NCBI GenBank assembly: GCA_030834985.1
Contig: JAUQWV010000006.1
Coordinates: 140,168-204,167 of the forward strand
From: Candidatus Dojkabacteria bacterium
GTDB taxonomy: Bacteria; Patescibacteriota; Dojkabacteria; J137
DNA length: 64,000 nt
Reading direction: 5' to 3'
The notes beneath the pieces were generated by a model. The model worked only from the letters and a program-made list of their open reading frames with translations. It was not told the DNA's origin and did no database searches. Positions 1,743 through 48,067 of the stretch are shown one piece after another. The position numbers and the translations under genes are program-made. Each line of letters begins with the position of its first letter. Within the stretch, counting starts at the first letter, position 1.

Positions 1743-3056
1743 TCACATGCTTTCGTGCAAGGTTGCCAAGAATTCTTCGTTAGTTTTTGTCTTCTTTAAT
1801 CGTTCTAAAAGTACTTCTGTTGGGTTTGCATTAGTTTCGGACTGAATAGTATCTAACATTCTAATTACTCTCCATGTTTGTGCTAAAACTTCTGGAGAAA
1901 GCAACTTATCTTCATTTCTTGTATAAGACGAAGTTACATCTATTGCAGGGAAAATTCTTCTTTCGGTCAATCTTCTATCCAATTTAACTTCCATATTCCC
2001 TGTACCTTTAAATTCTTCAAAGATAACATCATCCATTTTACTTCCTGTATCTACTAATGCAGTTGCAATTATAGTTAATGAGCCGCCATTTTCCATATTT
2101 CTAGCAGCACCAAAGAACTTTTTTGGAGGAAAAATGGCCACTGGATCAAATCCTCCTGATAGTGTTCTGCCTGATGGTGGCGCAACAATGTTGTAAGCCC
2201 TGGCAAGCCTTGTAATACTATCCATCAAAATTACAACGTCTTTGCCATATTCAACTAGTCTTTTAGCTCTTTCTACTGCCATTTCTGCTATCTTTGTGTG
2301 AAATTCTGGAGGTTCATCAAAGTTTGCGGCAATAACCTCGCCTTTAACAAATCTTTGCATATCAGTTACCTCTTCAGGCCTTTCACCAACTAAAACAACC
2401 ATTAAGTGTATTTCGGGATGATTTTTGGCTATACCATCTGCAATGTCCTTCATTAACCAGGTTTTACCTGCTTTAGGAGGAGCTACAATCATACCTCTTT
2501 GACCTTTACCGATAGGACTAATCAAATCAATCAATCTTGTAGATAAGATGTGCTGTTCTGTAGCAAGTTTAATTTGTGAGTCTGGATAAACTGGGGTTAA
2601 TTTCTGGAATGTAGGTCTTGAGATGGCTTTTTCTGGACTTGTACCGTTTATAGCTTCAATTTTAAGAAGGCTAAGGTATCTTTCACCCTCTTTTGGAGGT
2701 CTGGCTTGTCCGGAGATAAAATCTCCTTGTCTTAAGTTAAATCTCTTAATTTGAGAACCTGACACATAAACATCGTTATCTGCAGGCAACATCGTTGCTG
2801 ATCTTAAAACACCATGTGTATCTTTTACTACTTCTAAAAAGCCTTCTGCAAAGATGTTTCCACCTCTTTTAGTTTGCTCAGCTAAAATTATTAATACGAG
2901 TTCATTCTTTTTCAATTCTTGATTATCTTTTATTTCTAACTCTGTAGCTATCTTTCGAAGCTCAGCTAATGTCATATCTTCCAAATCTTTAATGCTTGTT
3001 GATTTTGCTATAGAATCTTTTTTTTGTACCGTTTCTTTTTTTACCACTGTAGTCAT
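1743..3056 (-). CDS. rho: Transcription termination factor Rho
   Basis: 437 aa. Rho N-terminal domain LAELRKIATELEI. RNA-binding region. Walker A GQRGMIVAPPKAGKT. Rho-type RecA-like C-terminal domain (AANFDEPP... VDTGS...). Confidence 0.9.
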   Translation of the reverse strand: MTTVVKKETVQKKDSIAKSTSIKDLEDMTLAELRKIATELEIKDNQELKKNELVLIILAEQTKRGGNIFAEGFLEVVKDTHGVLRSATMLPADNDVYVSGSQIKRFNLRQGDFISGQARPPKEGERYLSLLKIEAINGTSPEKAISRPTFQKLTPVYPDSQIKLATEQHILSTRLIDLISPIGKGQRGMIVAPPKAGKTWLMKDIADGIAKNHPEIHLMVVLVGERPEEVTDMQRFVKGEVIAANFDEPPEFHTKIAEMAVERAKRLVEYGKDVVILMDSITRLARAYNIVAPPSGRTLSGGFDPVAIFPPKKFFGAARNMENGGSLTIIATALVDTGSKMDDVIFEEFKGTGNMEVKLDRRLTERRIFPAIDVTSSYTRNEDKLLSPEVLAQTWRVIRMLDTIQSETNANPTEVLLERLKKTKTNEEFLATLHESM

Positions 3057-7402: not shown

Positions 7403-7470
7403 CTTAAGTTTTGGATTTTACCTTATGGTAAGACCTAAGTTCCTTTGAAGCATATGGATTTTACCATATT

Positions 7471-7498
7471 AAAAAGGCGCCCGACAAGCGGGCGCCTT
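7471..7498 (-). terminator. Intrinsic terminator (end of the rRNA-operon transcript / upstream of rpsA)
   Basis: Hairpin aggcgcccg-acaa-gcgggcgcct followed on the minus strand by TTTTT. Downstream of the 5S gene and upstream of the rpsA start. Confidence 0.65.
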
Positions 7499-7848
7499 AA
7501 TTTCTCCATTATATGACTATAATTCCCCTACAATTGAAGACAGGGAATATCAGCAATTCTGATTTGGAGTCAATCTATTGCCTTCAATCGAGATAGTCGC
7601 AGAAAATCCGCGCAGCATAGATTACCTCCTTTCATATTTAACAAGTAAAGAACTGCCCTTTTTACTTTGTATTATGAGCAGTACCCGCCTTTCAGCGGTA
7701 TGAATATTGCTATTCAGATAAGAGAATAAGAAATTTTGAGAAATTAGTCAATTATATTTTAGATAACTATTGCAATTACCATTAGCGGTCTTAGCTTTAG
7801 CTAAGCAATACAAAAAAGTATTTATTCTTTACGCACAAAGCAGATATT

Positions 7849-8174: not shown

Positions 8175-11213
<3,039 letters not shown>

Positions 11214-16797: not shown

Positions 16798-19161
16798 TCA
16801 AAAAAGCGCGTCAAATTCCTCTTTAGACAAAACTTCTTTATCAAGCAATACATTAGCTACTTTACCTAATTTTTCTCTATTATCTTCTAAGATTTTCTTT
16901 GCATTGGCGTATGCTTTTTCAATAATTGTTCGAACTTCAGTATCGATCTCTTCCGCAGTTTTTTCTGAATATTCTTTACTTGTACTATAGGCATATCCTA
17001 AATATTCATTTTCTTCAAAGTCTCCATATTGAACAAGACCTAGCTTACTGCTCATACCGAATTTTTGAACCATTCTGCGGGCAACTGCAGTTGCTTTCTC
17101 TATATCATTTGACGCTCCTGTAGAAACATCATCTAGAGCAATCTCTTCTGCTGCTCTACCGCCTAGTGTTACGGTAATATCTGCTAACAACTTACCTTTA
17201 GACATTATATACTCATCATTTTCCGGTAAGAACATCGTTACCCCTCCTGAAGATCCTCGCGATACAATAGAAATTCTATCAACTGGTGTAGCATTTGGAG
17301 TAAACTTTGCAACTACTGCATGACCTGCCTCGTGATAGGCAACAAGCTTCATCTCATTGTCTGTTCTTTTTCGCGAACGCTTAGCTGGCCCTAACATTAC
17401 TTTAGATACAGCTTCATCTATATCCTCGTTTGTTATTTCTTTACGATTAGCGTTCGCGGCAATGATGGCAGATTCATTTAAAATATTTTCTAAATCAGCC
17501 CCAGTAAAGCCAACTGTTCTTTTAGCAACTCTATAAAGATCCACATCTGCAGCAAAAGGCTTGTTCTGCCCATGTATTTCTAGGATTTTCTTTCTACCTT
17601 CTGCATCAGGAAGCTCAATCCTTACCTGTCGATCGAATCTTCCAGGTCTTAGAATAGCCGGATCAAGAACATCAGGTCTGTTTGTTGCAGCAAGAACTAT
17701 CACATTTGTATTCTTTTCAAAACCATCCATTTCAACCAGAATCTGGTTCAAAGTTTGCTCTGTGGCACCAGTTTGCACTTTTGTACCTCGTTTTCTTGCT
17801 ACTGCATCAATTTCATCGATAAAGATAAGGGCGGGTGCTGCCTTTTTAGCCTTATCGAATAAATCCCGAACTCTTGAAGCACCCGCCCCAACTAACATCT
17901 CTTCAAATTCAGAGCCTGAAGTATGGAAGAACGGGACTCTAGCTTCTCCTGCTATTGCACGAGCTAGCAAGGTTTTACCTGTACCTGGAGGGCCTACTAA
18001 TAGTATTCCCTTTGGGATTCTAGCGCCTAGCTTTCTATATTTATTAGGATTTTTTAAGAAGTCAACAATTTCGAATAGTTCGTTTCTAGCTTCATCAATA
18101 CCAGCTACATCATCAAAAGTAGTGTCAGTTTTTGATCCAAAAAAGATCTTAGCTCTGCTCTGCCCAAACTGCATAATACCCATACCAGAACCTTGAGCAC
18201 CTCTAAAGATAAAGAATATTAATACAACAAAGCCAACAAGAGTGATGATATTAATTATGTCAGAAAAGCCCACTCCTGTAGGAACGTTTACTGCTAATAT
18301 TTCAACATTGTCTAAGGATAAAGATATGCCTTCATTTTGAAGAAGATCTGTGAATGAATAAATATTTGGATTCCAGTCTACATAAACCTTCTGAACCATA
18401 TCCGGTTTTATCCTTGCAATAAATGAATTATTTATTGACCAGATATTAGAAAATTGATGGTCGTTCTTTCTATCTAAGAAAGATCTGGAATCTACCGATG
18501 ATGCAGCGCTGCGCAATCTAGTTACCGGTGTCGGAATTGATTCAATACTTAGGTTTTTATCTGCTAGTCTTTTTTGAAAATCACTTTCTGTAACATCCTT
18601 TACAATGATATCCTTCTGTCCTACAGGTCTAAGCCCGATAATAAAATTATCTGCTACAATTACTTCTTTGATAACTGAAGATTGATTATTTAAGATAGCC
18701 TTTAAAGCAGATAAAGCATCTACACTTTCAAAGTTAGCTACAAATTGATCCAATGTTTGAATTTCAAAACCATCATTAGTTTCGGTAGTTAATTTATAGT
18801 CAGAAGATGACTGTACATCGACATCTTTTGAATTGGCAATAACATAAGCTTTATCTGAAGCTAATATTTTGCCGTCGTTTTGAACATAAACCTGCCAAAA
18901 TCTATTATCTTTGATTCCTCTAACTACTGAATCCAGTGTAGTTAATGAAGCAGAATTATCTGATCTATTAAATATACTTACCCCTATTAAAAGAAGTACA
19001 AAAATAGCAATAATAGGAATCAAGGGATTTATTCTTAATATATTACTTCTGCTTGGACGTCTACCCTTTTTTTGAGCAGATTTAAGCTTATTAATAATCT
19101 CTTCGGAAATTCTATCGACCTCTTGCTGTGATTGCTGGTCTTTATTCTTTTGTTTGTCCAT
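16798..19161 (-). CDS. ftsH: ATP-dependent zinc metalloprotease FtsH with an unusually long (~230 aa) extracytoplasmic domain between TM1 and TM2
   Basis: 787 aa. TM1 PLIPIIAIFVLLLIGVSIF (~aa 47-66). TM2 IINIITLVGFVVLIFFIF (~aa 300). AAA+ Walker A GPPGTGKTLLARAIAGE. Second region of homology. Zn site HEAGHAV. Confidence 0.9.
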   Translation of the reverse strand: MDKQKNKDQQSQQEVDRISEEIINKLKSAQKKGRRPSRSNILRINPLIPIIAIFVLLLIGVSIFNRSDNSASLTTLDSVVRGIKDNRFWQVYVQNDGKILASDKAYVIANSKDVDVQSSSDYKLTTETNDGFEIQTLDQFVANFESVDALSALKAILNNQSSVIKEVIVADNFIIGLRPVGQKDIIVKDVTESDFQKRLADKNLSIESIPTPVTRLRSAASSVDSRSFLDRKNDHQFSNIWSINNSFIARIKPDMVQKVYVDWNPNIYSFTDLLQNEGISLSLDNVEILAVNVPTGVGFSDIINIITLVGFVVLIFFIFRGAQGSGMGIMQFGQSRAKIFFGSKTDTTFDDVAGIDEARNELFEIVDFLKNPNKYRKLGARIPKGILLVGPPGTGKTLLARAIAGEARVPFFHTSGSEFEEMLVGAGASRVRDLFDKAKKAAPALIFIDEIDAVARKRGTKVQTGATEQTLNQILVEMDGFEKNTNVIVLAATNRPDVLDPAILRPGRFDRQVRIELPDAEGRKKILEIHGQNKPFAADVDLYRVAKRTVGFTGADLENILNESAIIAANANRKEITNEDIDEAVSKVMLGPAKRSRKRTDNEMKLVAYHEAGHAVVAKFTPNATPVDRISIVSRGSSGGVTMFLPENDEYIMSKGKLLADITVTLGGRAAEEIALDDVSTGASNDIEKATAVARRMVQKFGMSSKLGLVQYGDFEENEYLGYAYSTSKEYSEKTAEEIDTEVRTIIEKAYANAKKILEDNREKLGKVANVLLDKEVLSKEEFDALF

Positions 19162-19219
19162 ATTTTTATCTATTAATCTGTTTATTATATCGTAAGTATA
19201 CCTTTTGGGAGCAAAAAAG

Positions 19220-19293
19220 TATCAGGGGGCGGAATCGAACCGCCGCTCTCGGGTTTATGAATCCCGTGCTTTAACCGACTAAGCTACCCTGAC
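19220..19293 (-). tRNA. tRNA with CAU anticodon, elongator-type (Met, or possibly lysidine-modified Ile2)
   Basis: Reverse complement GTCAGGGTAGCTTAGTCGGTTAAAGCACGGGATTCATAAACCCGAGAGCGGCGGTTCGATTCCGCCCCCTGATA. G1:U72 closes the acceptor stem (no C1xA72 mismatch). Anticodon loop TTCATAA. T-loop TTCGATT. Confidence 0.75.
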
Positions 19294-19350
19294 ATTAATG
19301 AACATAAGGATTTTATCAAAAATATCCATTTTATGTCTGAATAAAAATTC

Positions 19351-19380
19351 AAAAGCCCCTACAAACGTGTAGGGGCTTTT
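19351..19380. terminator. Symmetric hairpin between the two CAU tRNAs
   Basis: The sequence aaaagcccctaca-aacg-tgtaggggctttt has A/T runs on both sides and immediately follows the 3' CCA of the upstream initiator tRNA. Confidence 0.5.
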
Positions 19381-19454
19381 GGTTGCGGGGGTCCGATTCG
19401 AACGGACGACCTCCAGGTTATGAGCCTGACGAGCTGCCACTGCTCTACCCCGCG
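19380..19454 (-). tRNA. Initiator tRNA-fMet (CAU), CCA encoded
   Basis: Reverse complement CGCGGGGTAGAGCAGTGGCAGCTCGTCAGGCTCATAACCTGGAGGTCGTCCGTTCGAATCGGACCCCCGCAACCA. C1xA72 mismatch and a CGCGGGG start as in bacterial initiators. The anticodon stem has only two of the three canonical G:C pairs (29:41 is A:U). Confidence 0.8.
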
Positions 19455-19491
19455 ATCATTAATTTTAAATGCATTGGATTATACCAAAGAA

Positions 19492-19905
19492 TCACCAAGC
19501 TATCAATTTAGCCCACCAATCCGAAAACTCTGTTTTATCCTGAATATCTAAGTATTCAAGCTCTTCAAAGAAGAAACTTGCCTTATCTTTGGTACTGAAT
19601 AAGTTCTCTTCTGGCTTAGCCAAATTTTGAGCATCTCGAAGCAATAGAGCTTTATACTCATCAGAAGTCACATACTTATATTCTTCACTCAATACTTGAT
19701 TTTTCTCGAGCAGTTTTTCTAAGTCCGTCCCTTCTTCTAGATATGTTGCATAATTGCTTTGACCATTAGTAAAAATCCTAATGATATTACCGGCAATCAC
19801 CAATACTAAGAAGCCTAGAGCAATAGACAGTACAACACCGTCAAACTTGACTTCGCTTAAGTTACTTCTTGCTTTTTGTAGGGCTCTTTTAAATAGTCCT
19901 GGCAT
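19492..19905 (-). CDS. Hypothetical membrane protein
   Basis: 137 aa ORF with one TM helix (VVLSIALGFLVLVIAGNIIRIF). No recognisable motif. Confidence 0.45.
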   Translation of the reverse strand: MPGLFKRALQKARSNLSEVKFDGVVLSIALGFLVLVIAGNIIRIFTNGQSNYATYLEEGTDLEKLLEKNQVLSEEYKYVTSDEYKALLLRDAQNLAKPEENLFSTKDKASFFFEELEYLDIQDKTEFSDWWAKLIAW

Positions 19906-19980
19906 AAATTTTAAACCTCGTTGACCCTATAATATACCCATGTTAATATTTTGTCACTTATAAACCATATCCTATAATTT

Positions 19981-20850
19981 ATGGAAACTGAAAAATTGAT
20001 AAGTGACTTTATTAACTATCTTAGAAGAAGAGGAAAAGCGAAGTCAACATTAATTGCTTACCAAAATGATGTTACCCAGCTCTCTGAAAGTAATGTTAAT
20101 AAATCTCTTGTTGATTTTACAGAGGATGATATTAAGCATGGGCTTAATTTTTTACAAACTACCTACTCTCTTTCTCCTAAAACAATCTCAAGAAAGCTAA
20201 ATAGTATAAGGACTTTTTATAAATTCCTTGAAGAAAAAAAATATGTAAATAAAAATCCTACATTAAATATCTCTCATCCTAAATTTAGGATTAAAAAACA
20301 AAGATTTTTAACAAAACTTGAATACTTGGCATTAAAAGAAGAAAGCCGAGAAAATCCTAAAATATATATGCTTATTGAATTTCTATTACAAACAGGAGTA
20401 AGAATAGGTGAAGTATCTAGAATAAAAATCAAAGATGTATTTTTAGATGAGCCTAAGCCTTATGTTTACATCTCTGAGTTTGGAAGCAACAAAGAAAGAA
20501 CAGTCCCATTAAACTCTAAAATAGCAGTAGAACTTAGAGAATACCTAAATACTTATCCTTTTGCTAAAAAGCCAAACGCCCCTTTATTTTCTACAAAATC
20601 GGGGAAAAATATTGAAATCAGAAATATTAGAAGTGCTATTGATAGAGTCATCATTAGAGCAAAAATCAAAAATGCTTGTATAAACGATCTAAGAAACACT
20701 TTTATAGTAAATCAGTTGTCTTACGGGATCTCAATTTCTAAATTAGCTGAAATCGTTGGCCATAAGAATATTGGAACTACAACCAGATATTTAGAACTTC
20801 TAACAAAGAAATACCGAGCAACGGGCGATGATAAAGTTACAGAACTGTAA
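19981..20850 (+). CDS. Tyrosine site-specific recombinase (XerC/XerD/phage-integrase family)
   Basis: 289 aa. N-terminal SAM-like core-binding domain (ISDFINYLRRRGKAKSTLIAYQNDV; RTFYKFLEEKKYV). C-terminal catalytic region: R (GVRIGEVSRIK), K, then LRNTF...VGHKNIGTTTRYLEL with the nucleophile Tyr. Asn replaces the usual His of the HxxR box. Confidence 0.8.
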   Translation: METEKLISDFINYLRRRGKAKSTLIAYQNDVTQLSESNVNKSLVDFTEDDIKHGLNFLQTTYSLSPKTISRKLNSIRTFYKFLEEKKYVNKNPTLNISHPKFRIKKQRFLTKLEYLALKEESRENPKIYMLIEFLLQTGVRIGEVSRIKIKDVFLDEPKPYVYISEFGSNKERTVPLNSKIAVELREYLNTYPFAKKPNAPLFSTKSGKNIEIRNIRSAIDRVIIRAKIKNACINDLRNTFIVNQLSYGISISKLAEIVGHKNIGTTTRYLELLTKKYRATGDDKVTEL

Positions 20851-20859
20851 TTTACAGTA

Positions 20860-21681
20860 TTAAGGAATAAACTCTTCCGGTAAAGTAGCTACCGAGAAAT
20901 CTGTTGAATCAAATTCTTGTGTCCAAACATCAGTAAATTGAACTAATATACTCTTTATTGATTTAAGTGGAGTTTCTGGATTATCAACTTTAGTAACAAG
21001 AAATTGCTTCTTCTTTATTATATTGCAGCTACCATCTGGAAATGTGATAACTTCTTCTACATTACCATCTTCATCTAGCCTTCCACAGACTACTGACACT
21101 AAAGGATCAGTGGAGTTAATTCTTGACGGCTCATAAAGGCTTGTATGTTCATTACCCTCGCTATCTAACCACGTCACTGTAAGCTTGACGTTAAGCATGT
21201 CAAAATCATTACCATTATAGAAACTTATTGTATCCCCCGTAACACCTGCATAAGCAAAGAAGAAATTATCTACTATCTCTCCATTAACAGTAGTTACTTT
21301 TCCTTTATCTAAAACGAACTTATAAATATAGTTATTATGGCAGCCTTCTGTACATGGATTTTCAAGCTTTTTATTGTTTACAAGGGGCTCATGGTTTGCA
21401 ACTTGTGCTCCAGGAAACCTAAATGGTCTTTGGCTTAAGTTTCTAATTTGGCCAGAACGTTGTGGAAATAAGTCTAAAAGAACTCGCTGACGAGACTTAG
21501 AAACACCTGGATTATTTGTAGTTTGAACACCTAACACGTCAGAACCTAAATGATTTGCTCTTGCTGCAGCTACTGCTTCGTCAAAGATATCTTTATATAC
21601 TGATAATACGCTTGGGACTGCCAAACTTACCATAAGGAATATTAAAACTTTCGTTAAATTTTTGGTACTAAACATACACAA
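20860..21681 (-). CDS. Hypothetical secreted protein (N-terminal signal peptide)
   Basis: 273 aa. N-terminus MCMFSTKNLTKVLIFLMVSLAVPSVLS is signal-peptide-like. Four Cys. No known motif recognised. Confidence 0.5.
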   Translation of the reverse strand: MCMFSTKNLTKVLIFLMVSLAVPSVLSVYKDIFDEAVAAARANHLGSDVLGVQTTNNPGVSKSRQRVLLDLFPQRSGQIRNLSQRPFRFPGAQVANHEPLVNNKKLENPCTEGCHNNYIYKFVLDKGKVTTVNGEIVDNFFFAYAGVTGDTISFYNGNDFDMLNVKLTVTWLDSEGNEHTSLYEPSRINSTDPLVSVVCGRLDEDGNVEEVITFPDGSCNIIKKKQFLVTKVDNPETPLKSIKSILVQFTDVWTQEFDSTDFSVATLPEEFIP

Positions 21682-21758
21682 TAATTACTCTTGCTATAGT
21701 TTAGATGACATTCAGGAATGTTGCAATGATTGAAGTATGTTTAAATAGTATGCACAGT

Positions 21759-21795
21759 AGGCCTGCGCAGACTTGAACTGCGGACCCCGGCTTTA
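21759..21795 (-). repeat. Exact 37-nt copy of the 3' half (anticodon-loop to 3' end) of tRNA-Ile(UAU)
   Basis: The sequence aggcctgcgcagacttgaactgcggaccccggcttta is identical to 21846..21882. It diverges at tRNA position ~36. Confidence 0.85.
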
Positions 21796-21844
21796 AAGAG
21801 AAATTTGCAACATGGATAGTTTATGGGTAGATTCTTGTCCCGAC

Positions 21845-21918
21845 TAGGCCTGCGCAGACTTGAACTGCGGACCCCGGCTTTATAAGAACCGTGCTCTAAC
21901 CAGCTGAGCTACAGGCCT
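21845..21918 (-). tRNA. tRNA-Ile with UAU anticodon (reads AUA), complete
   Basis: Reverse complement AGGCCTGTAGCTCAGCTGGTTAGAGCACGGTTCTTATAAAGCCGGGGTCCGCAGTTCAAGTCTGCGCAGGCCTA. 7-bp perfect acceptor stem. D-arm GCTC/GAGC. Anticodon stem CGGTT/AGCCG. Loop CTTATAA (34-36 = TAT). T-arm CGCAG-TTCAAGT-CTGCG. Confidence 0.8.
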
Positions 21919-21968
21919 AGTCGAAATAAGACAGTTGCCCCCATAAACCCAAATTATTCGCAAATTTA

Positions 21969-22003
21969 AAGAACCGTGCTCTAACCAGCTGAGCTACAGG
22001 CCT
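21969..22003 (-). repeat. Exact 35-nt copy of the 5' half (position 1 to anticodon) of tRNA-Ile(UAU)
   Basis: The sequence aagaaccgtgctctaaccagctgagctacaggcct is identical to 21884..21918. It diverges after anticodon position 34. Confidence 0.85.
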
Positions 22004-22067
22004 ACTGTGCATACTTAATGTAAACGCTGGTAAAGTAAGGAAAGTATAGCAAAAAGCTTTCAAATTT

Positions 22068-22271
22068 TCACTTTCGTTTATAGATAACTTTATTATAGTA
22101 TAAGAATAAGAGCATTATAGAAATCGTAGATACGTAATGAAGTACGGCTCTGCCATTTAATAAATTTGAAGAATCACAAATGACGCCGTATAAATCTAAA
22201 TTTCTGGCAATAATACCTTTAATCGCTTTTTCACAATATTCTATAGTTGGGGTATCAAATAAAGATCTCAT
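22068..22271 (-). CDS. Small hypothetical protein, translationally coupled to the upstream ATPase gene
   Basis: 67 aa ORF starting 3 nt after the stop of 22275..24740. Hydrophobic C-terminus. No motif. Confidence 0.3.
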   Translation of the reverse strand: MRSLFDTPTIEYCEKAIKGIIARNLDLYGVICDSSNLLNGRAVLHYVSTISIMLLFLYYNKVIYKRK

Positions 22272-22274
22272 TAT

Positions 22275-24740
22275 TTAGAAACCGCCTAAACCACCGCCAA
22301 ATAATGAAGCTGGCTTCTTTTCTTCCTCAGTTTTTTCTTTAATAAAGGTTCCTCTGAGCTTAATTTCATTTTCAATAATATTCCTATCTTTACCATATTT
22401 AAGTCTGGAAATCTGTTTAGCAACATCTGCTATTTGTGGATTTGACTGTCCAATCATATCGTATGGAGAATCACCATAAAATGATCTAGTAGTAAATGCA
22501 GGTGTTGGTTTACCGTCTGCTAGCATTCTAAAATAAAAATTGAAGTTTTCAATCTGTTGAAGATCTGATTCATCTACAGTTTCACCCATCTCTTTAGATA
22601 GGAATACTGAATCATCGGCCCCCACTCTAAATACGGCTTTATTGCCAACATTACCGAAAACAGCATCTTTTATACTTGTATTATTGCCTTCTCTCACTAA
22701 TTGGCCTACGTATTGATGACCTAAAGTTAAAGCAAGTCTATACTTTCTAGCCTCAGATAGAATAACTTTGATTCCGTCGGTCAAGTAGTTTTGAAACTCA
22801 TCAATGTATAAATAGAATGGATTTCTAGATTTTTCATCGGTCCCTTCCCTTTCAAGAGCTGCAACAAGAAACTTACCAACTATTATCATACCAAGCAATG
22901 CTGCATTTAACTCACCTATCTTACCTTTGGTTAATTTAACAATAAGGATCTTGCCTTCATCCATTATTTTTCTAAAGTTTATTGTTGATTCCTGCTGAGC
23001 AATAATCGGCCTTACATACTGGTTAGTCAAAAATGGAGCTAATTTAGAAACAACGTATGGAGTAACATTCTTTAATCCAACATCTCCTGTAGCCTGCTCT
23101 GCCTGTTTTCGCCAGAAGTCAATCACCTCTTGGTCTGTGCATTTTGACAGCTTGTAGTTTCGATAGCCGTCATCTGCAAATATTTTTGGGATCTCCATTA
23201 AAGTAGAGCCCGATTCAATATCATCTGTTAAAAGCATAATTGCATATCTGAAGTACTGTTCAAACATTGGGCCTCCGGTAACTTTCAGATTGTACAATGT
23301 ATCAAAAATATTCAACATTTCGTTGGTAACAAGTGTACGTTGTGCCGGATTGCTAAACTCAAGCATATTCAAACCTACTGGGCGCTCTAAATCTGAAGGA
23401 TCAAAGATTACAACATCTTCCACTCTTTCAGGAGGGATCTGTTGTAATAATTTTTCAGCATCTGTTCCGTGTGGGTCAATATATCCGCATCCGTGACCCA
23501 ACTTCATATCTCTAATCATCATTCCCGACATAAATGCAGATTTACCTGTACCAGTTTGACCAATAACATAAAAGTGCCTTAAGCGGTCTTCAGGTTTAAT
23601 AAAGATCTCTTTAAATTGTCCTCTAAACGAGTTACGGCCTACGTACATATAGTCTTTTTGATAAGTGCTTGCCACAAAATCTGGAGCAGGAGCTTTTTTT
23701 GCTAGAAGCCACTTTATGTGAGGCGCTTCTACATTTTTATTTGGGAAGTGAAATAAAGTGGCTAGTTCAGCTGTATTTAAAATCATAGACTGCCTTGGTA
23801 TTCGGTATATTACATCTTCAGCAATAGTGCCTACTTCTTTATCTTTCATCTTTTTAAATTTATTTCCACCTTCTTTTAAGAACTGATCAAAAAGACTTAA
23901 AGAGTTAGCAAGGCTGGAGTCTGCACTAAATTTAGTATCCGAAATACAAACGATTCGTACATCTGTATAAAAGCCAGATTTATCTGCTTTTTTATCCATC
24001 AATGAAATCGTATCGTCGTCAAATTTAGGCTTTGATGCTTTTTCGCCTTCTTTAGCGGGCTCTCTGAGCTTTTTAACAAAATCTTTTGCTTCGTTACGCC
24101 ATTTAGAGCCCGCTGGGGAAATTATCATTTGAAAAACTGCCCCTTCGTTATCACGAAGCTTACTGAAAATATCTGTTAGCGCACCAACTGAATCAACTGC
24201 AAGCTCTTCATAGGTCTGAAATGGTATTCTAGTATCTTTATCAAGTTTTAAAGCAGCATATGAAGCGTATGCTGCATCAGGAAATAAGTTGTATTCTTTA
24301 ACCTGATTAATTTCAGCCTGAGGGTATGTACTGTTAATTTGTCTATCAACAATATTTGCAATACTTTTAGGACACACCACATAAAATTTAATAGACTCTT
24401 TAAATGCTACTATTTCAAAACTTACAAACTTTCTTGCGCCAATAAAGCTCTTAAATCCTTTAAGTTCCTCTCCTATACCTAACAACCCTGTATACATCTG
24501 CTCTGCTGCTCTAATTTCAACATCATTTGAATTAGGCAGTTTTACTTCAAAGAAAACTAAACCTAACCCTTTACGTTTTAAAACTGCCTGTTTAAAGCCC
24601 TGAAGATATTTAACTAGAAGAAAGCCACCTATAACTGCGAGTGCTAATAAAACAAAAATTATAACTGCAGCGCTTTGTACAGCACTCGCAGAAACAATTT
24701 CTTGTGTATTAAGATTTGATACGGATTGAGTTCCAAACAT
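22275..24740 (-). CDS. VirB4/VirD4-superfamily type-IV-secretion ATPase (VirB4/TrbE-like by size and motif positions)
   Basis: 821 aa. N-terminal TM AVIIFVLLALAVIGGFLLVKY. Walker A HFYVIGQTGTGKSAFMSG at ~aa 395. DPxGE-like motif YIDPHGTDAEKL. Walker B LYIDEFQNY at ~aa 645. This architecture is typical of VirB4/TrbE/CagE or TraG-like conjugation ATPases. Confidence 0.65.
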   Translation of the reverse strand: MFGTQSVSNLNTQEIVSASAVQSAAVIIFVLLALAVIGGFLLVKYLQGFKQAVLKRKGLGLVFFEVKLPNSNDVEIRAAEQMYTGLLGIGEELKGFKSFIGARKFVSFEIVAFKESIKFYVVCPKSIANIVDRQINSTYPQAEINQVKEYNLFPDAAYASYAALKLDKDTRIPFQTYEELAVDSVGALTDIFSKLRDNEGAVFQMIISPAGSKWRNEAKDFVKKLREPAKEGEKASKPKFDDDTISLMDKKADKSGFYTDVRIVCISDTKFSADSSLANSLSLFDQFLKEGGNKFKKMKDKEVGTIAEDVIYRIPRQSMILNTAELATLFHFPNKNVEAPHIKWLLAKKAPAPDFVASTYQKDYMYVGRNSFRGQFKEIFIKPEDRLRHFYVIGQTGTGKSAFMSGMMIRDMKLGHGCGYIDPHGTDAEKLLQQIPPERVEDVVIFDPSDLERPVGLNMLEFSNPAQRTLVTNEMLNIFDTLYNLKVTGGPMFEQYFRYAIMLLTDDIESGSTLMEIPKIFADDGYRNYKLSKCTDQEVIDFWRKQAEQATGDVGLKNVTPYVVSKLAPFLTNQYVRPIIAQQESTINFRKIMDEGKILIVKLTKGKIGELNAALLGMIIVGKFLVAALEREGTDEKSRNPFYLYIDEFQNYLTDGIKVILSEARKYRLALTLGHQYVGQLVREGNNTSIKDAVFGNVGNKAVFRVGADDSVFLSKEMGETVDESDLQQIENFNFYFRMLADGKPTPAFTTRSFYGDSPYDMIGQSNPQIADVAKQISRLKYGKDRNIIENEIKLRGTFIKEKTEEEKKPASLFGGGLGGF

Positions 24741-24806
24741 TTATATACTGCTAATTCGATTTATTATAGATTATTTTACCAGTTGAGGTAAGAGGATTTA
24801 TGCGAC

Positions 24807-25361
24807 TTACTTTTTTGACAAGCCCTGTTCTTCTATAAATTTTTGAAACTGAACAGAAAGCCACTTAGAAGTTGAGCTTAAAGATTTTTTGCTGTTCCGC
24901 TTAATATATTCAATTGCTTTATTAATATAAACAGGATTTATTGGAGGCTTAAAGCCATCTCCGTAAGGAGATTCTGCTTCTTCCGACTTAGCGGCAACTT
25001 GTATTGTAGCTGGTGTTGGGGCAGGTTGTGCTTGTTGGATAGCTGCCTCTTGTTGTTTTTCAACAGACTTTTCTATTGAGCTTTCTTTTTCAACTGTGGT
25101 TTCTATATTAGAATCTATCACTTGAGGCACTGCAGGCATATTAGGCATAGATTCCATTCCTCCATTAGACCCGCTAGCCTGAGAATTAGCAATTTGAGTT
25201 TTTACAAAATCATATGCAACACTTAAAAGCACAACCTGCCCATTTGGCGCAACTACTAAGGTCAGTCCGCTTTCGTCATAACCAAAGAACTTAAAACCAA
25301 ACTTTTCTACCAGTTTTAGTACTTCTATATCATTATTTTGAGCAACTGTCTGATTATTCAT
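24807..25361 (-). CDS. Hypothetical protein (Ala/Gln/Pro-rich linker)
   Basis: 184 aa ORF with no recognisable motif. Tightly packed between smpB and the ATPase gene. Confidence 0.45.
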   Translation of the reverse strand: MNNQTVAQNNDIEVLKLVEKFGFKFFGYDESGLTLVVAPNGQVVLLSVAYDFVKTQIANSQASGSNGGMESMPNMPAVPQVIDSNIETTVEKESSIEKSVEKQQEAAIQQAQPAPTPATIQVAAKSEEAESPYGDGFKPPINPVYINKAIEYIKRNSKKSLSSTSKWLSVQFQKFIEEQGLSKK

Positions 25362-25363
25362 AT

Positions 25364-25819
25364 TTATATATTATATTTTTTTCTATCTCTTTCGATTCCT
25401 CTTTTTATATCTTTTTCCTTAATAACATTTCTTTTATCAAATTTTTTTCGTCCTTTTACTAATGCAACATTTAATTTTACTAAACCTCTATCATCCTGTA
25501 TTACTTCTAAAGGAACAATTGTAATACCAGGCTGTTTTACTGAAGCTGCTAGCACAGTAATTTGTCTTTTAGTTAATAATAGCTTTCTTCTGCGCTTCTC
25601 ATCTACTTTAGATGAGCTACTTGCAAACTTCCACATTGGAATATTTGCACCCTCTAAAAACATTTCATTGTTTACATTTTTGATATATGCCCCAGCAAGG
25701 CTGATTTTACCAGCTTTAACAGACTTTACTTCCCATCCGAGCAAATTGATTCCAGCTGTAACGGTATCTAAAACGTCGAAGTCAAAATATGCCTTTTTAT
25801 TACTTGCTAGAACTTTCAT
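25364..25819 (-). CDS. smpB: SsrA-binding protein SmpB
   Basis: 151 aa. MKVLASNKKAYFDFDVLDTVTAGINLLGWEVKSVKAGKISLAGAYIK matches the SmpB N-terminal consensus (K-x-A-x-N-K-K-A-x-x-D-Y ... G-x-E-V-K-S). Basic C-terminal tail. Confidence 0.9.
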   Translation of the reverse strand: MKVLASNKKAYFDFDVLDTVTAGINLLGWEVKSVKAGKISLAGAYIKNVNNEMFLEGANIPMWKFASSSSKVDEKRRRKLLLTKRQITVLAASVKQPGITIVPLEVIQDDRGLVKLNVALVKGRKKFDKRNVIKEKDIKRGIERDRKKYNI

Positions 25820-25825
25820 CTACAA

Positions 25826-28411
25826 TTAAATATCCAACCTTATTATTGTGGTACCATCCAGTACATAGATTGCTCTACTTGCCTCGTTTACAACTACTTC
25901 TTTAATATTTTTAAATATATTTGAATCACTGCCTCTATAAATATATGAAGTATTATAGATTAAGTTTTTAGCATCTGAGTCCTCGATTGTAAAAAGCATA
26001 ACCCTTCGGTTATTTGGATCGGCAACCGCTAAAAGTTTACCATCAATGTCAATGGCAGTAGCATTAGAAATAGAATCTATATCTTTCTGTATTGTATTAA
26101 CAAAACTATCGGCAGTAATTGTATTTTCGCCTCCTGCTAAGTATCTGCGCAATCCTTTACCTCTAATTAATGTATAGATTTCGTAAGGAACTGTAATATC
26201 AATTGCACTTCCAAATTCTGGATCAGTTTTCCAATTAGGAGGATTCTGAACATTATATACTGCGCCTCCACCTACATAACCGTCAGCATCTTTATCTCTT
26301 TTAAATATCTGTTGGTGATTTTGATGTATTTCGTATAAGGCATCATTACCACTAAAGACAGCTGCTTTAGTAACATTTCCAATAACAGATTGAGAGAGAC
26401 CAGGAATCCTTTGAACACTTCCATCTCCAGATAGATTAATCTTGCCAACTGCACTTGTTGAATCGGTATCAAAGAATATAACGTCACCCGCTACATTCTT
26501 TGTTAGTGTGTATGGGGCACTCAGATTCGTTGCTATTTGATTTATCTGGGAATTCTCCTGAGTGCCCACTTGATAAATCGTATTTCTTCCTTTATCTGAA
26601 ACATATAGACCACCTGCTGCAAATACCATATCAGTCACATTCGCGTCTGAATATAACTTCCCGATATCTGCAATTACCAAAGGTTCACTAAATCCTACAA
26701 TTCCTAAAATATCATCCTTATTAGTTTGGATCTTTGTCTGTGCAGCATCAATTTCATCCAAGAATAGCTCTTCTTTTTTCTGAGCTTCAAATTTATTATT
26801 TAAACTATCTAATTGATTAACTAATTCTGTTTTTTGATCATCTGAAGTTGCAGATGGAATTCTTCTGATTATAGAATTAAGATCAGAAGTATAGGTATCG
26901 ATATTCGATCTTACCTGCTCCACCCTAGATTCTTCCTGTAATTGGATATTTCTATTGTTTATTGAATTAATGATAACCACACCTAAAACGATCACAAGAA
27001 TTATCAATATAATTCTGTTTCGTTTTCTACGTCTTGCTTTAGCAAACATATCTCGTCTATCATCCACACCTCCACCTATAAATTCTTTTTTAAACCAGCC
27101 TAAGAAACGAACAATCAAATCTTTTATCTTTATTACGATATCACGTAAATATTTAATATAAGTTTTATTACTTTTTTGCAAAAAAGGCATTAATTTTGTT
27201 TGAGAAAATGTTTTCAATCTCTCTGCAGCAGGGCCTGATGCTGCACCAAATTTGGATGTACTCCCATACAGTACATCTTCATCTTCAAATTGATCTTCTT
27301 GAAATTGACTGAACCTTTTTTCTCCTGAAGGTCTAAGTTCATCATCGTCTTCAAAGTCAACTTCAATCGGCACAGGTCTTGCGCTTTGAGCACCAGTCTG
27401 TGTACGCAGGTTATCTAGACTAGATCTACCAGCTGCAATAGAACGTGTTAAACCGCCTCTTAATCGACTCATTAACAATTTACCTCTTGGAATTTCTGCT
27501 TCAACATCTGCTAATGATCGAACATTTATCTCCTCTTCATCTTCTATACGTACATCATCTAATTCTACGGATTCAGCAGATACATTAGCCAAAGCATCAA
27601 TTGAATCTTCTGCTTCAAAATCCTCATCTTGAATTGGAATGTATTTAGCAGAGCCAGCAGAACCATCGATATACTCACCTTCTTCGTCTTCAACTTGAGC
27701 AGCAACTTCTGCTGGCTCTGCTAAATCAGCTAAAGGTTCATTTAAAACTTCATCCGGATCAGCATCTGCGGTTTTCCACTCATCATTTTCATCTGCTAAA
27801 AGCAATACTGCGGCACCTTGTTTAGATGCTAATGGTGATAAAGCTTTTATTCTTAAATTACTTACAGCTTCTTGAATAATATTTGAATCAATATCATTTG
27901 CAGTAGATGTAGAAAGAGCTAACCTATCCCCTTCTTCCAGTTCTAAACTTCCGGTTTTTAAGAAGCCCATCATACTTCCATCTGTTAGGCCTTGAGATAA
28001 GTCTGCATAGCGGTCACCTCTCTTAATAAATACCTTTGTTTCTCCGATTACTCCCAAATACAAAAAGTTCTTTTCAAAAAGTGCTAACCCAAGCTCAATA
28101 TCTAAACCATTTTGAGCGTATCTTTCATCTGAAGAAAGCAAAGTTTCCATTTTGGATTTCATTTTCCATACAGCATTTTCAAGTCTAATGTTGTAATCAC
28201 CTTCTTTTCCTTCCTCGAATAAATAATTCTGAAGCTCATCCAAAAACATTTTTGCTAATGCTTCCAAACGAGTTTCATTATTTGCTGTTTCAAGTTTAAT
28301 AATTGCAAAAAGCTCTAGAGGTTCAATGGAATTTTCAGGTTTAAAGTAATAAACTCCAGCCCACGAGTTAGAAGATTGAGTGCCGACTAAAAAATCTGCT
28401 CTTAATTGCAT
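25826..28411 (-). CDS. Large membrane protein: N-terminal cytoplasmic domain (possibly PP2C/SpoIIE-like), acidic linker, one TM helix, and a C-terminal extracellular repeat (beta-propeller-like) domain
   Basis: 861 aa. TM ILIILVIVLGVVIINSI at ~aa 480. Acidic stretch DEDFEAEDSIDAL...EDEEEINV. C-terminal repeats with NHL-like patterns (DIDGKLLAVADPNNRRVMLF). The N-terminal fold assignment is tentative. Confidence 0.5.
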   Translation of the reverse strand: MQLRADFLVGTQSSNSWAGVYYFKPENSIEPLELFAIIKLETANNETRLEALAKMFLDELQNYLFEEGKEGDYNIRLENAVWKMKSKMETLLSSDERYAQNGLDIELGLALFEKNFLYLGVIGETKVFIKRGDRYADLSQGLTDGSMMGFLKTGSLELEEGDRLALSTSTANDIDSNIIQEAVSNLRIKALSPLASKQGAAVLLLADENDEWKTADADPDEVLNEPLADLAEPAEVAAQVEDEEGEYIDGSAGSAKYIPIQDEDFEAEDSIDALANVSAESVELDDVRIEDEEEINVRSLADVEAEIPRGKLLMSRLRGGLTRSIAAGRSSLDNLRTQTGAQSARPVPIEVDFEDDDELRPSGEKRFSQFQEDQFEDEDVLYGSTSKFGAASGPAAERLKTFSQTKLMPFLQKSNKTYIKYLRDIVIKIKDLIVRFLGWFKKEFIGGGVDDRRDMFAKARRRKRNRIILIILVIVLGVVIINSINNRNIQLQEESRVEQVRSNIDTYTSDLNSIIRRIPSATSDDQKTELVNQLDSLNNKFEAQKKEELFLDEIDAAQTKIQTNKDDILGIVGFSEPLVIADIGKLYSDANVTDMVFAAGGLYVSDKGRNTIYQVGTQENSQINQIATNLSAPYTLTKNVAGDVIFFDTDSTSAVGKINLSGDGSVQRIPGLSQSVIGNVTKAAVFSGNDALYEIHQNHQQIFKRDKDADGYVGGGAVYNVQNPPNWKTDPEFGSAIDITVPYEIYTLIRGKGLRRYLAGGENTITADSFVNTIQKDIDSISNATAIDIDGKLLAVADPNNRRVMLFTIEDSDAKNLIYNTSYIYRGSDSNIFKNIKEVVVNEASRAIYVLDGTTIIRLDI

Positions 28412-47569: not shown

Positions 47570-47612
47570 AAAAGGGCACCTTCAACAGAAGTTGAAGATG
47601 CCCTTTTGGTGG
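47570..47612 (-). terminator. Intrinsic terminator immediately after the tmRNA 3' CCA
   Basis: The sequence aaaagggcaccttcaac-agaa-gttgaagatgccctttt is a 13-bp stem with one mismatch and U-runs on both sides. Confidence 0.7.
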
Positions 47613-48067
47613 AGATGAGGGGTTTTCCCCTGTCCAAAAAAACTCAAATTAAAAAATTGTTACAAGCTTATTAAGTTTATATAGATAAAGATAACTAACT
47701 AAAAACTCACAAAACATTAATTATCTTAGCTTACGTTAAGCTTAGAATGTGCTCGTAAACTAAAAACACATTTTGCATTCCGGCTAAGTGGCGCCTAAGA
47801 GTTTTCACCGGAAGAAAATCTCAAAGACGGCTAACCTACTTGTTTTTTCGGTTAGCTACTGATGCTAAATTAAGCAAAAGCTAGAGCGTAAGAAGGAGCA
47901 AAAGCTGCCTTTACACCTGCAACTGCATTAGCAACAGTATTTTTAATTTGATTGACGCTTATGTCAAAGAACCTTTATTCAAGGTGACTATTTATTTATA
48001 AGGAACAAATAATCTAAATTCCTGCTTGTTTTTTAAGATGCAATTCTTCTGTCTAAAAAGCATCCCC
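47607..48067 (-). ncRNA. ssrA: Transfer-messenger RNA (tmRNA, ssrA) candidate, ~460 nt
   Basis: The minus strand starts GGGGAUG... and ends ...GGACAGGGGAAAACCCCUCAUCUCCACCA. The 7-bp acceptor stem GGGGAUG/CAUCUCC has the G3:U70 alanine identity pair, discriminator A and an encoded CCA. The 3' end resembles Bacillus tmRNA (...UCUCCACCA). The internal frame GCU AAU GCA ... GCU UAA (47932..47870) encodes ANAVAGVKAAFAPSYALAFA*, a typical AN...YALA-type degradation tag. The T-arm is AGGGG-AAAA-CCCCU, a 4-nt loop instead of the usual 7-nt T-loop. Confidence 0.65.

Follow-up and report, generated by a model that had tools for sequence, protein, structure and literature searches.

In a 64,000-nt stretch of DNA from a Candidatus Dojkabacteria bacterium (assembly GCA_030834985.1, contig JAUQWV010000006.1; hereafter the window), a complete tRNA-Ile(UAU) gene lies nested between the two halves of a second, identical tRNA-Ile(UAU) gene. 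The intact unit, which carries its own helix, sits where A35 of the second gene should be. This nest is real and recurs in relatives. The explanation we favor, to which we give about an even chance, is that a stem-plus-tRNA cassette was inserted at the anticodon of a resident gene, that the central gene is functional and the halves are relics, and that the arrangement spreads by homologous recombination. The features of the nest, listed 5' to 3' along the minus strand, are as follows.

22043..22071 (-): promoter-like site GTGAAA-17-TGcTATACT, upstream of the entire nest (consensus scan)
22004..22015 (-): leader arm AGTATGCACAGT, the 5' strand of a 12-bp outer extension of the acceptor stem (inverted repeat)
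21969..22003 (-): outer 5' half, tRNA positions 1-34, 35 nt (direct repeat, 100%; BLAST query 1-35, 100%)
21919..21968 (-): spacer X, 50 nt, the 5' strand of a long imperfect helix around the central tRNA (sequence; pairs with Y)
21845..21918 (-): complete tRNA-Ile(UAU), the central gene (ARAGORN; Rfam tRNA, 63.9 bits)
21796..21844 (-): spacer Y, 49 nt, the 3' strand of that helix and a partial reverse complement of X
21759..21795 (-): outer 3' half, tRNA positions 36-72 (direct repeat, 100%; BLAST query 37-74, 100%)
21747..21758 (-): trailer arm ACTGTGCATACT, whose first base is the discriminator A73 (21758), the 3' strand of the 12-bp extension

The order on the minus strand is AGTATGCACAGT, positions 1-34, X, tRNA-Ile(UAU), Y, positions 36-72 with the discriminator, and the rest of ACTGTGCATACT; ARAGORN and Rfam call the central gene alone as a tRNA. 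An original prediction, made from the DNA letters alone, had placed the complete tRNA between exact partial copies of itself that break in the anticodon loop, and both points hold. A 36-nt direct repeat (21884-21919 and 21969-22004; the 5' half plus one flanking T) and a 38-nt direct repeat (21758-21795 and 21845-21882; the 3' half plus the discriminator) are each 100% identical. The outer 5' copy stops at T34 and the outer 3' copy begins at T36, so that A35 is missing from the outer gene, and an insert of 173 nt (X, tRNA, and Y) stands in its place. Both junctions have the 8-nt direct repeat TCTTTAAA in common. The inverted repeat that bounds the unit is perfect and extends the acceptor stem by 12 bp, as predicted, and is 19 nt long instead of 18 (21747-21765 and 21997-22015; 12 nt of flank plus the 7-nt acceptor stem). 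Similarly, one of the two spacers has the predicted 50 nt and the other has 49. Their partial reverse complementarity was correctly recognized: X and Y are collinear, with blocks AAATTTGC and GTTTATGGG, and their RNA duplex energy of -34.6 kcal/mol lies well beyond that of shuffles (-16.7 ± 3.6). The nested fold predicted for the whole 269-nt unit has an energy of -118.4 kcal/mol (z = -7.7), and its junction, examined by eye, is an asymmetric internal loop of 4 nt versus 8 nt, not the pair of 3-nt bulges of a bulge-helix-bulge motif. X and Y are unrelated to the window's own outer leader and trailer. The sequence of the central tRNA is identical to that of the single-copy gene in four related loci (L091, L095, L098, and L102).

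An identical 269-nt unit was found in an independent NCBI assembly (CAJPGA010000129.1, GCA_905339375.1), the one that spans the nest among 11 contigs carrying an identical sequence of the 821-aa neighboring protein. Within the 5' half, five Logan unitigs that derive from different runs share one end point (...GGTTAGAGCACG). Because the Logan graph uses k = 31, a true 36-nt repeat breaks it, which would explain why the unitigs stop there. The presence of a second strain with a different leader could also have caused the breaks, and therefore the NCBI contig is the firm evidence. Related nests are present in ENA, JGI, and Logan assemblies of related species (L101, L105, and L110). The original prediction had also proposed a search for other copies of the arm and spacers; neither the 12-nt arm nor the spacer motif occurs again within the 64-kb window.

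Orthologous loci, whose comparison had likewise been proposed, have a plain gene in some relatives and nests or remnants in others. These loci were anchored on the gene of the 821-aa VirD4/TraM-recognition-like ATPase; the sample comprises about 15 lineages, many on short contigs, and contig searches gave at least three Dojkabacteria loci on genome contigs and two relevant ones on metagenome contigs. A single tRNA-Ile(UAU), identical or nearly identical in sequence, occupies the same position in L091-L094, L095, L098, L102, and L108, where the neighboring protein is 74-88% identical to that of the window. The same promoter motif as in the window (TTTTTGCTATACTTTCC; TTTTTGCTATACT) lies upstream of the gene in all close relatives, and the tRNA-Ile(UAU) of this clade is transcribed from its own, predicted promoter.

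In most plain-gene relatives, the leader and trailer are perfectly complementary up to the tRNA, with the discriminator paired too (L091, TGTTCAAAGT/ACTTTGAACA; L095, GAATTCTTAGT/ACTAAGAATTC; L102, TATTAAAAGT/ACTTTTAATA; L108, GGGCAAAGT/ACTTTGCCC). The perfect Watson-Crick runs measure 10 bp in L091, L102, and L108, 11 bp in L095, and 12 bp in L105 and around the outer halves of the window, and the extension of the acceptor stem in close relatives is 9-12 bp. In an alignment of 10 sequences, 96.3% of the cells are paired and 11 of the 19 pairs have changed on both sides; none of 500 shuffles matched this covariation, and no slid register came close. Four fully compensated pair differences, including A:T to C:G, distinguish L091, L102, and L108. 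Non-Watson-Crick cells comprise 14 G·U on the sense strand versus 4 A·C, and the sense duplex is at least as stable as the antisense duplex in every clade member. From the strong covariation, the bias of G·U to the sense strand, and the stability of the sense duplex, we conclude that the helix is selected in the transcript and is thus an RNA-level feature. The leader arm of the window has the same position as the covarying, homologous leader arms of the relatives, and the inverted repeat noted in the original prediction is therefore the normal leader-trailer helix of the formerly intact gene.

The helix has a restricted distribution. L098 has none next to the tRNA (~7463-7600) and instead has a 16-bp G·U-rich helix that is offset by ~12 nt on the 5' side and is stable on the sense strand alone (-19.0 versus -11.1 kcal/mol for antisense). 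The more distant Dojkabacteria loci L123, L127, and L011-L013 are without a leader-trailer helix. The other six tRNAs of the window have no leader-trailer extension, which rules out the helix as a general trait of this genome's tRNAs. In L111, the tRNA-Ile(UAU) (7550-7623) has a compensated acceptor change, G3:C70 to U3:A70, and a C·A mismatch at the leader-discriminator pair.

In the nests of L101, L110, and L105, the 5' half ends ...GGTTCTT and the 3' half begins TAAAGCC, the same break as in the window, and the spacers (27 and 25 nt in L101, 26 and 25 nt in L105, 25 nt for the first of L110) are unrelated to X and Y. Within an outer helix of the L102 type, L101 (ENA) has an outer 5' half, the 27-nt spacer, a complete tRNA, the 25-nt spacer, and an outer 3' half; its outer 5' half has a single substitution and, in the D loop, an insertion of 71 nt, and degenerate third 5' and 3' copies further out form an older third layer. 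L110 (Logan) has the same interrupted outer 5' half and a different inner spacer. L105 (JGI) has inner spacers of the L101 type, an outer 5' half reduced to 11 nt, a 3' half with three changes, and, 63 nt further, a third, more decayed 3' copy, which gives three 3' copies with a 63-nt period. Only remnants are left in the ~75% relatives L122 and L111, where ...GATTCTT/TAAAAAG lies upstream; in L122, a 3' half with five changes follows 32 nt downstream. Every 5' copy ends ...TTCTT followed by T(T)AA, and the 3' copies of the newer layers all start TAAAG. In a neighbor-joining tree of the neighboring protein, L101, L105, and L110 group with the plain-gene loci L091 and L102, from which it follows that the plain or nested state changed within a tight group.

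Several further observations were made at these and other loci. The 71-nt D-loop insertions of L101 (4940-5010) and L110 (~2937-3008) are ~90% identical and carry an inverted repeat of their own, AATCAAGTT...AACTTTGATT. The 63% relative L012 (6484-6763) has an exact 52-nt repeat, running from T33 to 11 nt past the tRNA 3' end, 125 nt after its complete tRNA-Ile(UAU), and the Xer-like gene terminates directly at this repeat. Two copies of an 8-nt sequence, AGTCAACT, frame the whole block as direct repeats, and its spacer motif GGTTCTTATTGC is also found downstream of the tRNA in L101 and L102. A survey of 86 tRNAs in ~1 Mb of fetched loci detected partial copies near about eight distinct tRNA loci. 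The inspected cases other than Ile(UAU) were one-sided repeats or tandem pseudogenes, and nests as a general trait of Patescibacteria were rejected. Individual finds include a 15-16-nt repeat of the 3' end 105 nt downstream of tRNA-Ile(UAU) in L014 (8963-8978), a tandem degenerate tRNA-Met pseudogene in L107 (3285-3446), and a pseudo-tRNA-Gln upstream of the real gene in L024 (8822-9101).

Taken together, these comparisons give good support to the inner gene as the probable working copy and to the outer halves as probable relics of a former resident gene, as opposed to a working split gene. In the relatives, the outer halves are truncated (L105), interrupted (L101 and L110), mutated (L122, and also L105), or absent (L091, L095, L098, L102, and L108). 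Instead of purifying selection, they show decay, interruption, and loss across the relatives, and the inner gene is unchanged. Since the 73 nt show not one difference and the outer helix has remained perfect, the split in the window is, with good support, likely to be recent. It is equally well supported that outer halves decay with time and that new layers may form inside them.

The spread and reshuffling of the cassette by homologous recombination is less certain and is inferred from the distribution of its parts. A first insertion would have occurred in an ancestor, after which the nested allele would have spread and been reshuffled. Such an insertion would be neutral because the cassette brings a working tRNA. 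The half-tRNA segments of a nested donor (35-38 nt) would provide perfect homology arms to any plain tRNA-Ile(UAU), such that DNA from a nested strain could convert a plain gene into a nested one. This would resemble homing with no dedicated enzyme, relying on the cell's own recombination only. Homologous recombination would also swap cassettes, and layers would be removed by the reverse exchange or by recombination between direct repeats. Exchange through homology arms would thus give all nests the same junction positions. That the center moves as a unit is suggested by L101 and L105, whose spacers differ at 3 of 52 positions amid divergent surroundings (~80% DNA identity in the adjacent gene and unalignable sequence beyond the halves), and by L101 and L110, which have the outer half and its insertion in common and different inner spacers. 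We also count for cassette exchange the fact that the halves in the window are 100% identical to the center, whereas the outer flanks show no relationship to X and Y.

Several points weigh against this explanation. No donor with the window's X and Y was found, and import was not directly observed. The explanation does not account for the emergence of the first nest, the missing A35, or TCTTTAAA at both junctions. At 35-38 nt, the arms come close to the shortest length at which RecA recombines efficiently. The high spacer identity of L101 and L105 could reflect constraint on the helix and not transfer, and the well-preserved outer halves of several lineages could mean gene conversion or function. 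Finally, sampling extends to some 15 lineages, often through short contigs.

The main rival, which is possible though on balance doubtful, is duplication in situ, in which slippage or unequal crossing-over would have duplicated the leader with the 5' half and the 3' half with the trailer with no import, and gene conversion from the center would keep the halves identical while the spacers drift. Traces of leader sequence within spacers fit such an origin: the motif TTAAGGTTTACAT occurs in older leaders (L102, L091, and the window, as GTTTACATT) as well as in the inner spacers of L101 and L105, and the inner spacer of L110 resembles its own outer leader (TGTGTATTTATAGT versus TGTTTGTATTAAAAGT). 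The regular 63-nt period of the three 3' copies in L105 and the inclusion of 11 nt of native trailer in the L012 repeat point the same way. However, X and Y in the window are unlike the outer leader and trailer, yet the halves have accumulated no difference in 73 nt. Moreover, equal layers on both sides and complementary, length-matched spacers are not expected from independent events, and duplication in place does not readily give L101 and L110 a common outer layer with different inner spacers.

A stronger form of the cassette explanation, which we consider unlikely, regards the stem-plus-tRNA unit as a minimal, protein-free selfish cassette whose homing site is the anticodon loop of its own gene. 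It would break the resident copy, replace its function, and invade plain alleles with the broken halves as arms, and repeated invasions would build the concentric layers. In a bolder variant, the first insertion would have taken place at the RNA level, where a processed stem-tRNA was ligated into the loop minus one nucleotide and then copied into DNA.

Site-specific recombination is distinctly improbable. Here, a tyrosine recombinase, whether the neighboring Xer-like enzyme or a different one, would have inserted a small circular or folded single-stranded cassette at a core site in the anticodon stem-loop, and the half copies would be attL/attR-type junctions. The break does lie within the 7-nt anticodon loop between inverted stem arms, and its position at T34/T36 agrees with the anticodon loop, T loop, or 3' end expected for an attachment (att) scar. 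Williams 2002 reportedly describes the anticodon loop as a classical integrase target sublocation. When the end of Y is joined to the start of X, the result is GCAAATTT-CTCTTT-AAATTTGC, an 8-bp inverted repeat around 6 nt, and the architecture of the joined ends is similar in L101. A recombinase gene is close by, 0.9 kb away, and abuts the repeated 3' half in L012.

19981..20850 (+): Xer-like tyrosine recombinase (Pfam Phage_integrase and SAM-like domains)

This gene scores ~125 bits against the XerC, XerA, and XerD models, under the model cut-offs. It is located outside the repeats, is syntenic in the plain-gene relatives L091, L095, L098, L111, L122, L123, and L127, and adjoins plain as well as nested tRNA loci; only the distant L013 lacks it here. 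Conserved synteny rules it out as the private gene of a mobile element, and we regard it as a neighbor whose involvement in the nest is only putative. Further points tell against site-specific recombination: the two nests have wholly different arm sequences, the tRNA loop is not matched by the overlap regions, A35 is lost, and a double-stranded circle of 173 bp is implausibly small. The classical att scars suggested in the original prediction are not borne out either. In place of a complete copy plus a partial one bounding an element, the window has two different partial copies, one on either side of the complete gene and each 49-50 nt away, so that the "elements" would be only ~50 nt long; the one-sided att-like pattern appears only in the distant relative L012. 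Nor is the integrase carried inside an element and missing from the empty site, the Xer-like gene being external and syntenic regardless. No further att copy was found between tRNA-Ile(UAU) and tRNA-Met in any locus examined.

It is very unlikely that the nest is a functional precursor, that is, that the whole RNA acts as a processing scaffold or that removal of the insert lets a second, split or intron-containing tRNA be joined. In favor of function are the high stability of the nested fold, the occurrence of the architecture, or of remnants of it, in lineages with only ~75% identity in the neighboring protein, and the better state of several outer halves compared with their spacers. Retention of one spacer T would yield an Ile-bodied tRNA with anticodon UUU, and Patescibacteria tRNAs commonly have group I introns at 35/36 (PMC13011429). 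On the other hand, when the outer halves are joined, they lack A35 and form a 6-nt anticodon loop, for which ARAGORN reports a 2-nt anticodon, "tt". The intron-mode search that the original prediction had proposed was run in ARAGORN and returned the single central gene and no intron-containing tRNA. An Rfam E-value scan of 21500-22300 for a group I intron or another family in the insert gave tRNA matches only, and a scan at gathering thresholds gave no intron. These results, together with outer halves that are truncated, interrupted, mutated, or absent in relatives while the inner gene is unchanged, speak against the split or intron-containing tRNA gene that was among the original suggestions.

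There is a slight chance that the insert is a transposon of the miniature inverted-repeat transposable element (MITE) kind, non-autonomous, with terminal inverted repeats, a tRNA as cargo, and a target duplication. The ends of the insert are inverted repeats (AAATTTGC/GCAAATTT), TCTTTAAA is directly repeated at the two junctions, and older junctions look like TA duplications (CTTA/AGG in L102; T/TATAAAGCC in L101 and L012). However, the terminal sequences differ from nest to nest (AAATTTGC... in the window, AAGGTTATA... in L101, and different again in L110), no other copy of spacer or arm was found in the 64 kb, and no transposase was seen near any locus. The junction repeat is TCTTTAAA in the window and only TTAA in L101, and neither equals the intact target CTTATAA. 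Among the original suggestions, a palindromic, MITE-like unit nevertheless comes closest to the stem-plus-tRNA cassette, which is not a usual MITE because its ends are not conserved between nests. "Flush" insert ends as a sign of a cut hairpin were considered and dropped, since the equal lengths in the window come from compensating indels. Lastly, misassembly of the repeated tRNA region, to which the unitigs that stop within the 5' half might point and which the original prediction had listed as an assembly artifact, is negligible given the identical full structure in an independent NCBI metagenome-assembled contig, the homologous nests in three other datasets, and unitig breaks exactly where a true 36-nt repeat predicts them.

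The unit is not a CRISPR-like array, as its two spacers are reverse complements of each other, and a Pfam scan of the nine open reading frames (ORFs) at 16798-28411 gave no Cas family. Part of spacer X (21924-21950, minus strand) agrees at 26 of 27 positions with a stretch inside the gene for a tail tubular protein (phrog_457) of a T7-like phage, present on two IMG/VR contigs of 44-49% G+C (L112, 2219-2245; L113, 6620-6646). In a collection of at least 4e10 bases, we estimate a chance match at ~1e-3 to 1e-4, and we do not build on it. IMG/VR probes from spacer Y, the L012 spacer, and the L101 insertion gave no match. The exact sequence of the tRNA anticodon and T arm occurs in IMG/VR only in an unrelated phage tRNA-Ile, and with the three spacer and insertion probes empty, a carrier phage or plasmid was set aside. 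A degenerate junction probe matched eight viral contigs, whose contents were not inspected.

The wider locus is that of a member of the candidate phyla radiation (CPR). Homologues of the 821-aa protein carry the source label Candidatus Dojkabacteria, and the window has ~35% G+C, an rRNA operon, and a transfer-messenger RNA (tmRNA). The conserved neighbor upstream of the nest is the following.

22275..24740 (-): VirD4/TraM-recognition-like ATPase gene (DUF8128), 821 aa

Relatives keep the gene order SmpB, a 184-aa ORF, the VirD4-like gene, tRNA-Ile(UAU), a variable ORF, the Xer-like recombinase, a 137-aa ORF, two tRNA-Met, and FtsH. The ORFs beside the tRNA, searched as candidate nucleases, match no family even at E = 1. 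A 67-aa ORF between the VirD4-like gene and the promoter (22068-22271, minus strand) looks by eye like a remnant: it resembles an internally deleted version of a ceramidase-like membrane protein of 211 aa, whose intact form occupies the corresponding place in L123 (6440-7075), and the two are recognizably similar in their N- and C-terminal segments. In the 70% relative L127, a free-standing 65-aa ORF with a GIY-YIG nuclease domain (9605-9802; Pfam E = 8e-12) lies beside tRNA-Met. GIY-YIG nucleases could favor recombination at tRNA loci, and none was seen in the window. The tmRNA of the window (47607-48067, minus strand) is 461 nt long against a 374-position model and has several long insertions, in which no group I intron was detected. 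From position 1 onward, the cumulative GC skew drops steadily until it reverses near 52-54 kb and rises, a sign that a replication origin or terminus may lie ~30 kb from the tRNA locus.

Should the cassette indeed spread by way of its half-tRNA arms, we would be dealing with very simple selfish DNA that has no enzyme of its own and with a natural marker of recombination between CPR strains that have not been cultured. The presence of a covarying helix at one particular tRNA suggests that these reduced bacteria mature it by an unusual route, because pairing of this kind impedes RNase P. In practical terms, nested loci break short-read assemblies, and tRNA-like fragments may be miscounted by annotation tools.

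We found no description in the literature of a tRNA gene nested concentrically in its own halves, here in up to three layers. Full-text searching on tRNA introns in the CPR gave only papers on group I introns, and on tRNA gene fragments it gave papers on integrative elements; the original prediction, too, was aware of no described bacterial locus with such symmetry. Reiter 1989 and Williams 2002, as cited in PMC9897764, reportedly describe partial tRNA genes left by integrative elements as attL/attR direct repeats. The nest resembles these in its exact partial copies beside a complete gene, its break in the anticodon loop, and its patchy occurrence among relatives. In the known cases, a single partial tRNA copy marks the distal end of a kb-sized element with an integrase of its own (PMC9897764). 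Here, in contrast, there is a half on either side at a distance of 50 nt, the insert carries a whole tRNA and no protein gene, and the recombinase is outside and syntenic in plain-gene relatives.

A second comparison is with the split, intron-containing, and permuted tRNA genes of Nanoarchaeum, Caldivirga, and Cyanidioschyzon. As in archaeal-type split tRNAs, the gene is divided at the anticodon loop, and complementary sequences hold the pieces together in the predicted RNA fold. Unlike them, the nest is bacterial, its outer halves lack nucleotide 35 and decay, and the "intron" is the same complete tRNA. The tRNA genes of Patescibacteria often have group I introns at 35/36 (PMC13011429), which are found in the same phylum, in the anticodon loop, and within one nucleotide of the break in the nest. 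The insert described here, however, has no Rfam group I match, 74 of its 173 nt are tRNA, and its exons cannot rebuild a 7-nt loop.

The leader-trailer helix is comparable to the processing helices formed by the leader and trailer of bacterial rRNA precursors (PMC10250234), since it, too, is a covarying helix built from the flanks of a mature stable RNA. It differs in that a single tRNA is flanked and the helix directly continues the acceptor stem. According to PMC9433436, bacterial RNase P is inhibited in vitro when pairing prolongs the acceptor stem, which would imply an extra processing step here, by another nuclease or by unwinding. The homing of introns and inteins offers the last parallel. 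Whereas harm is avoided here by a spare gene and not by splicing, no endonuclease is encoded, and transfer is inferred, the nest has in common with homing elements an insert in an essential, conserved gene, flanks that are identical to the empty allele, harmlessness, and a patchy distribution.

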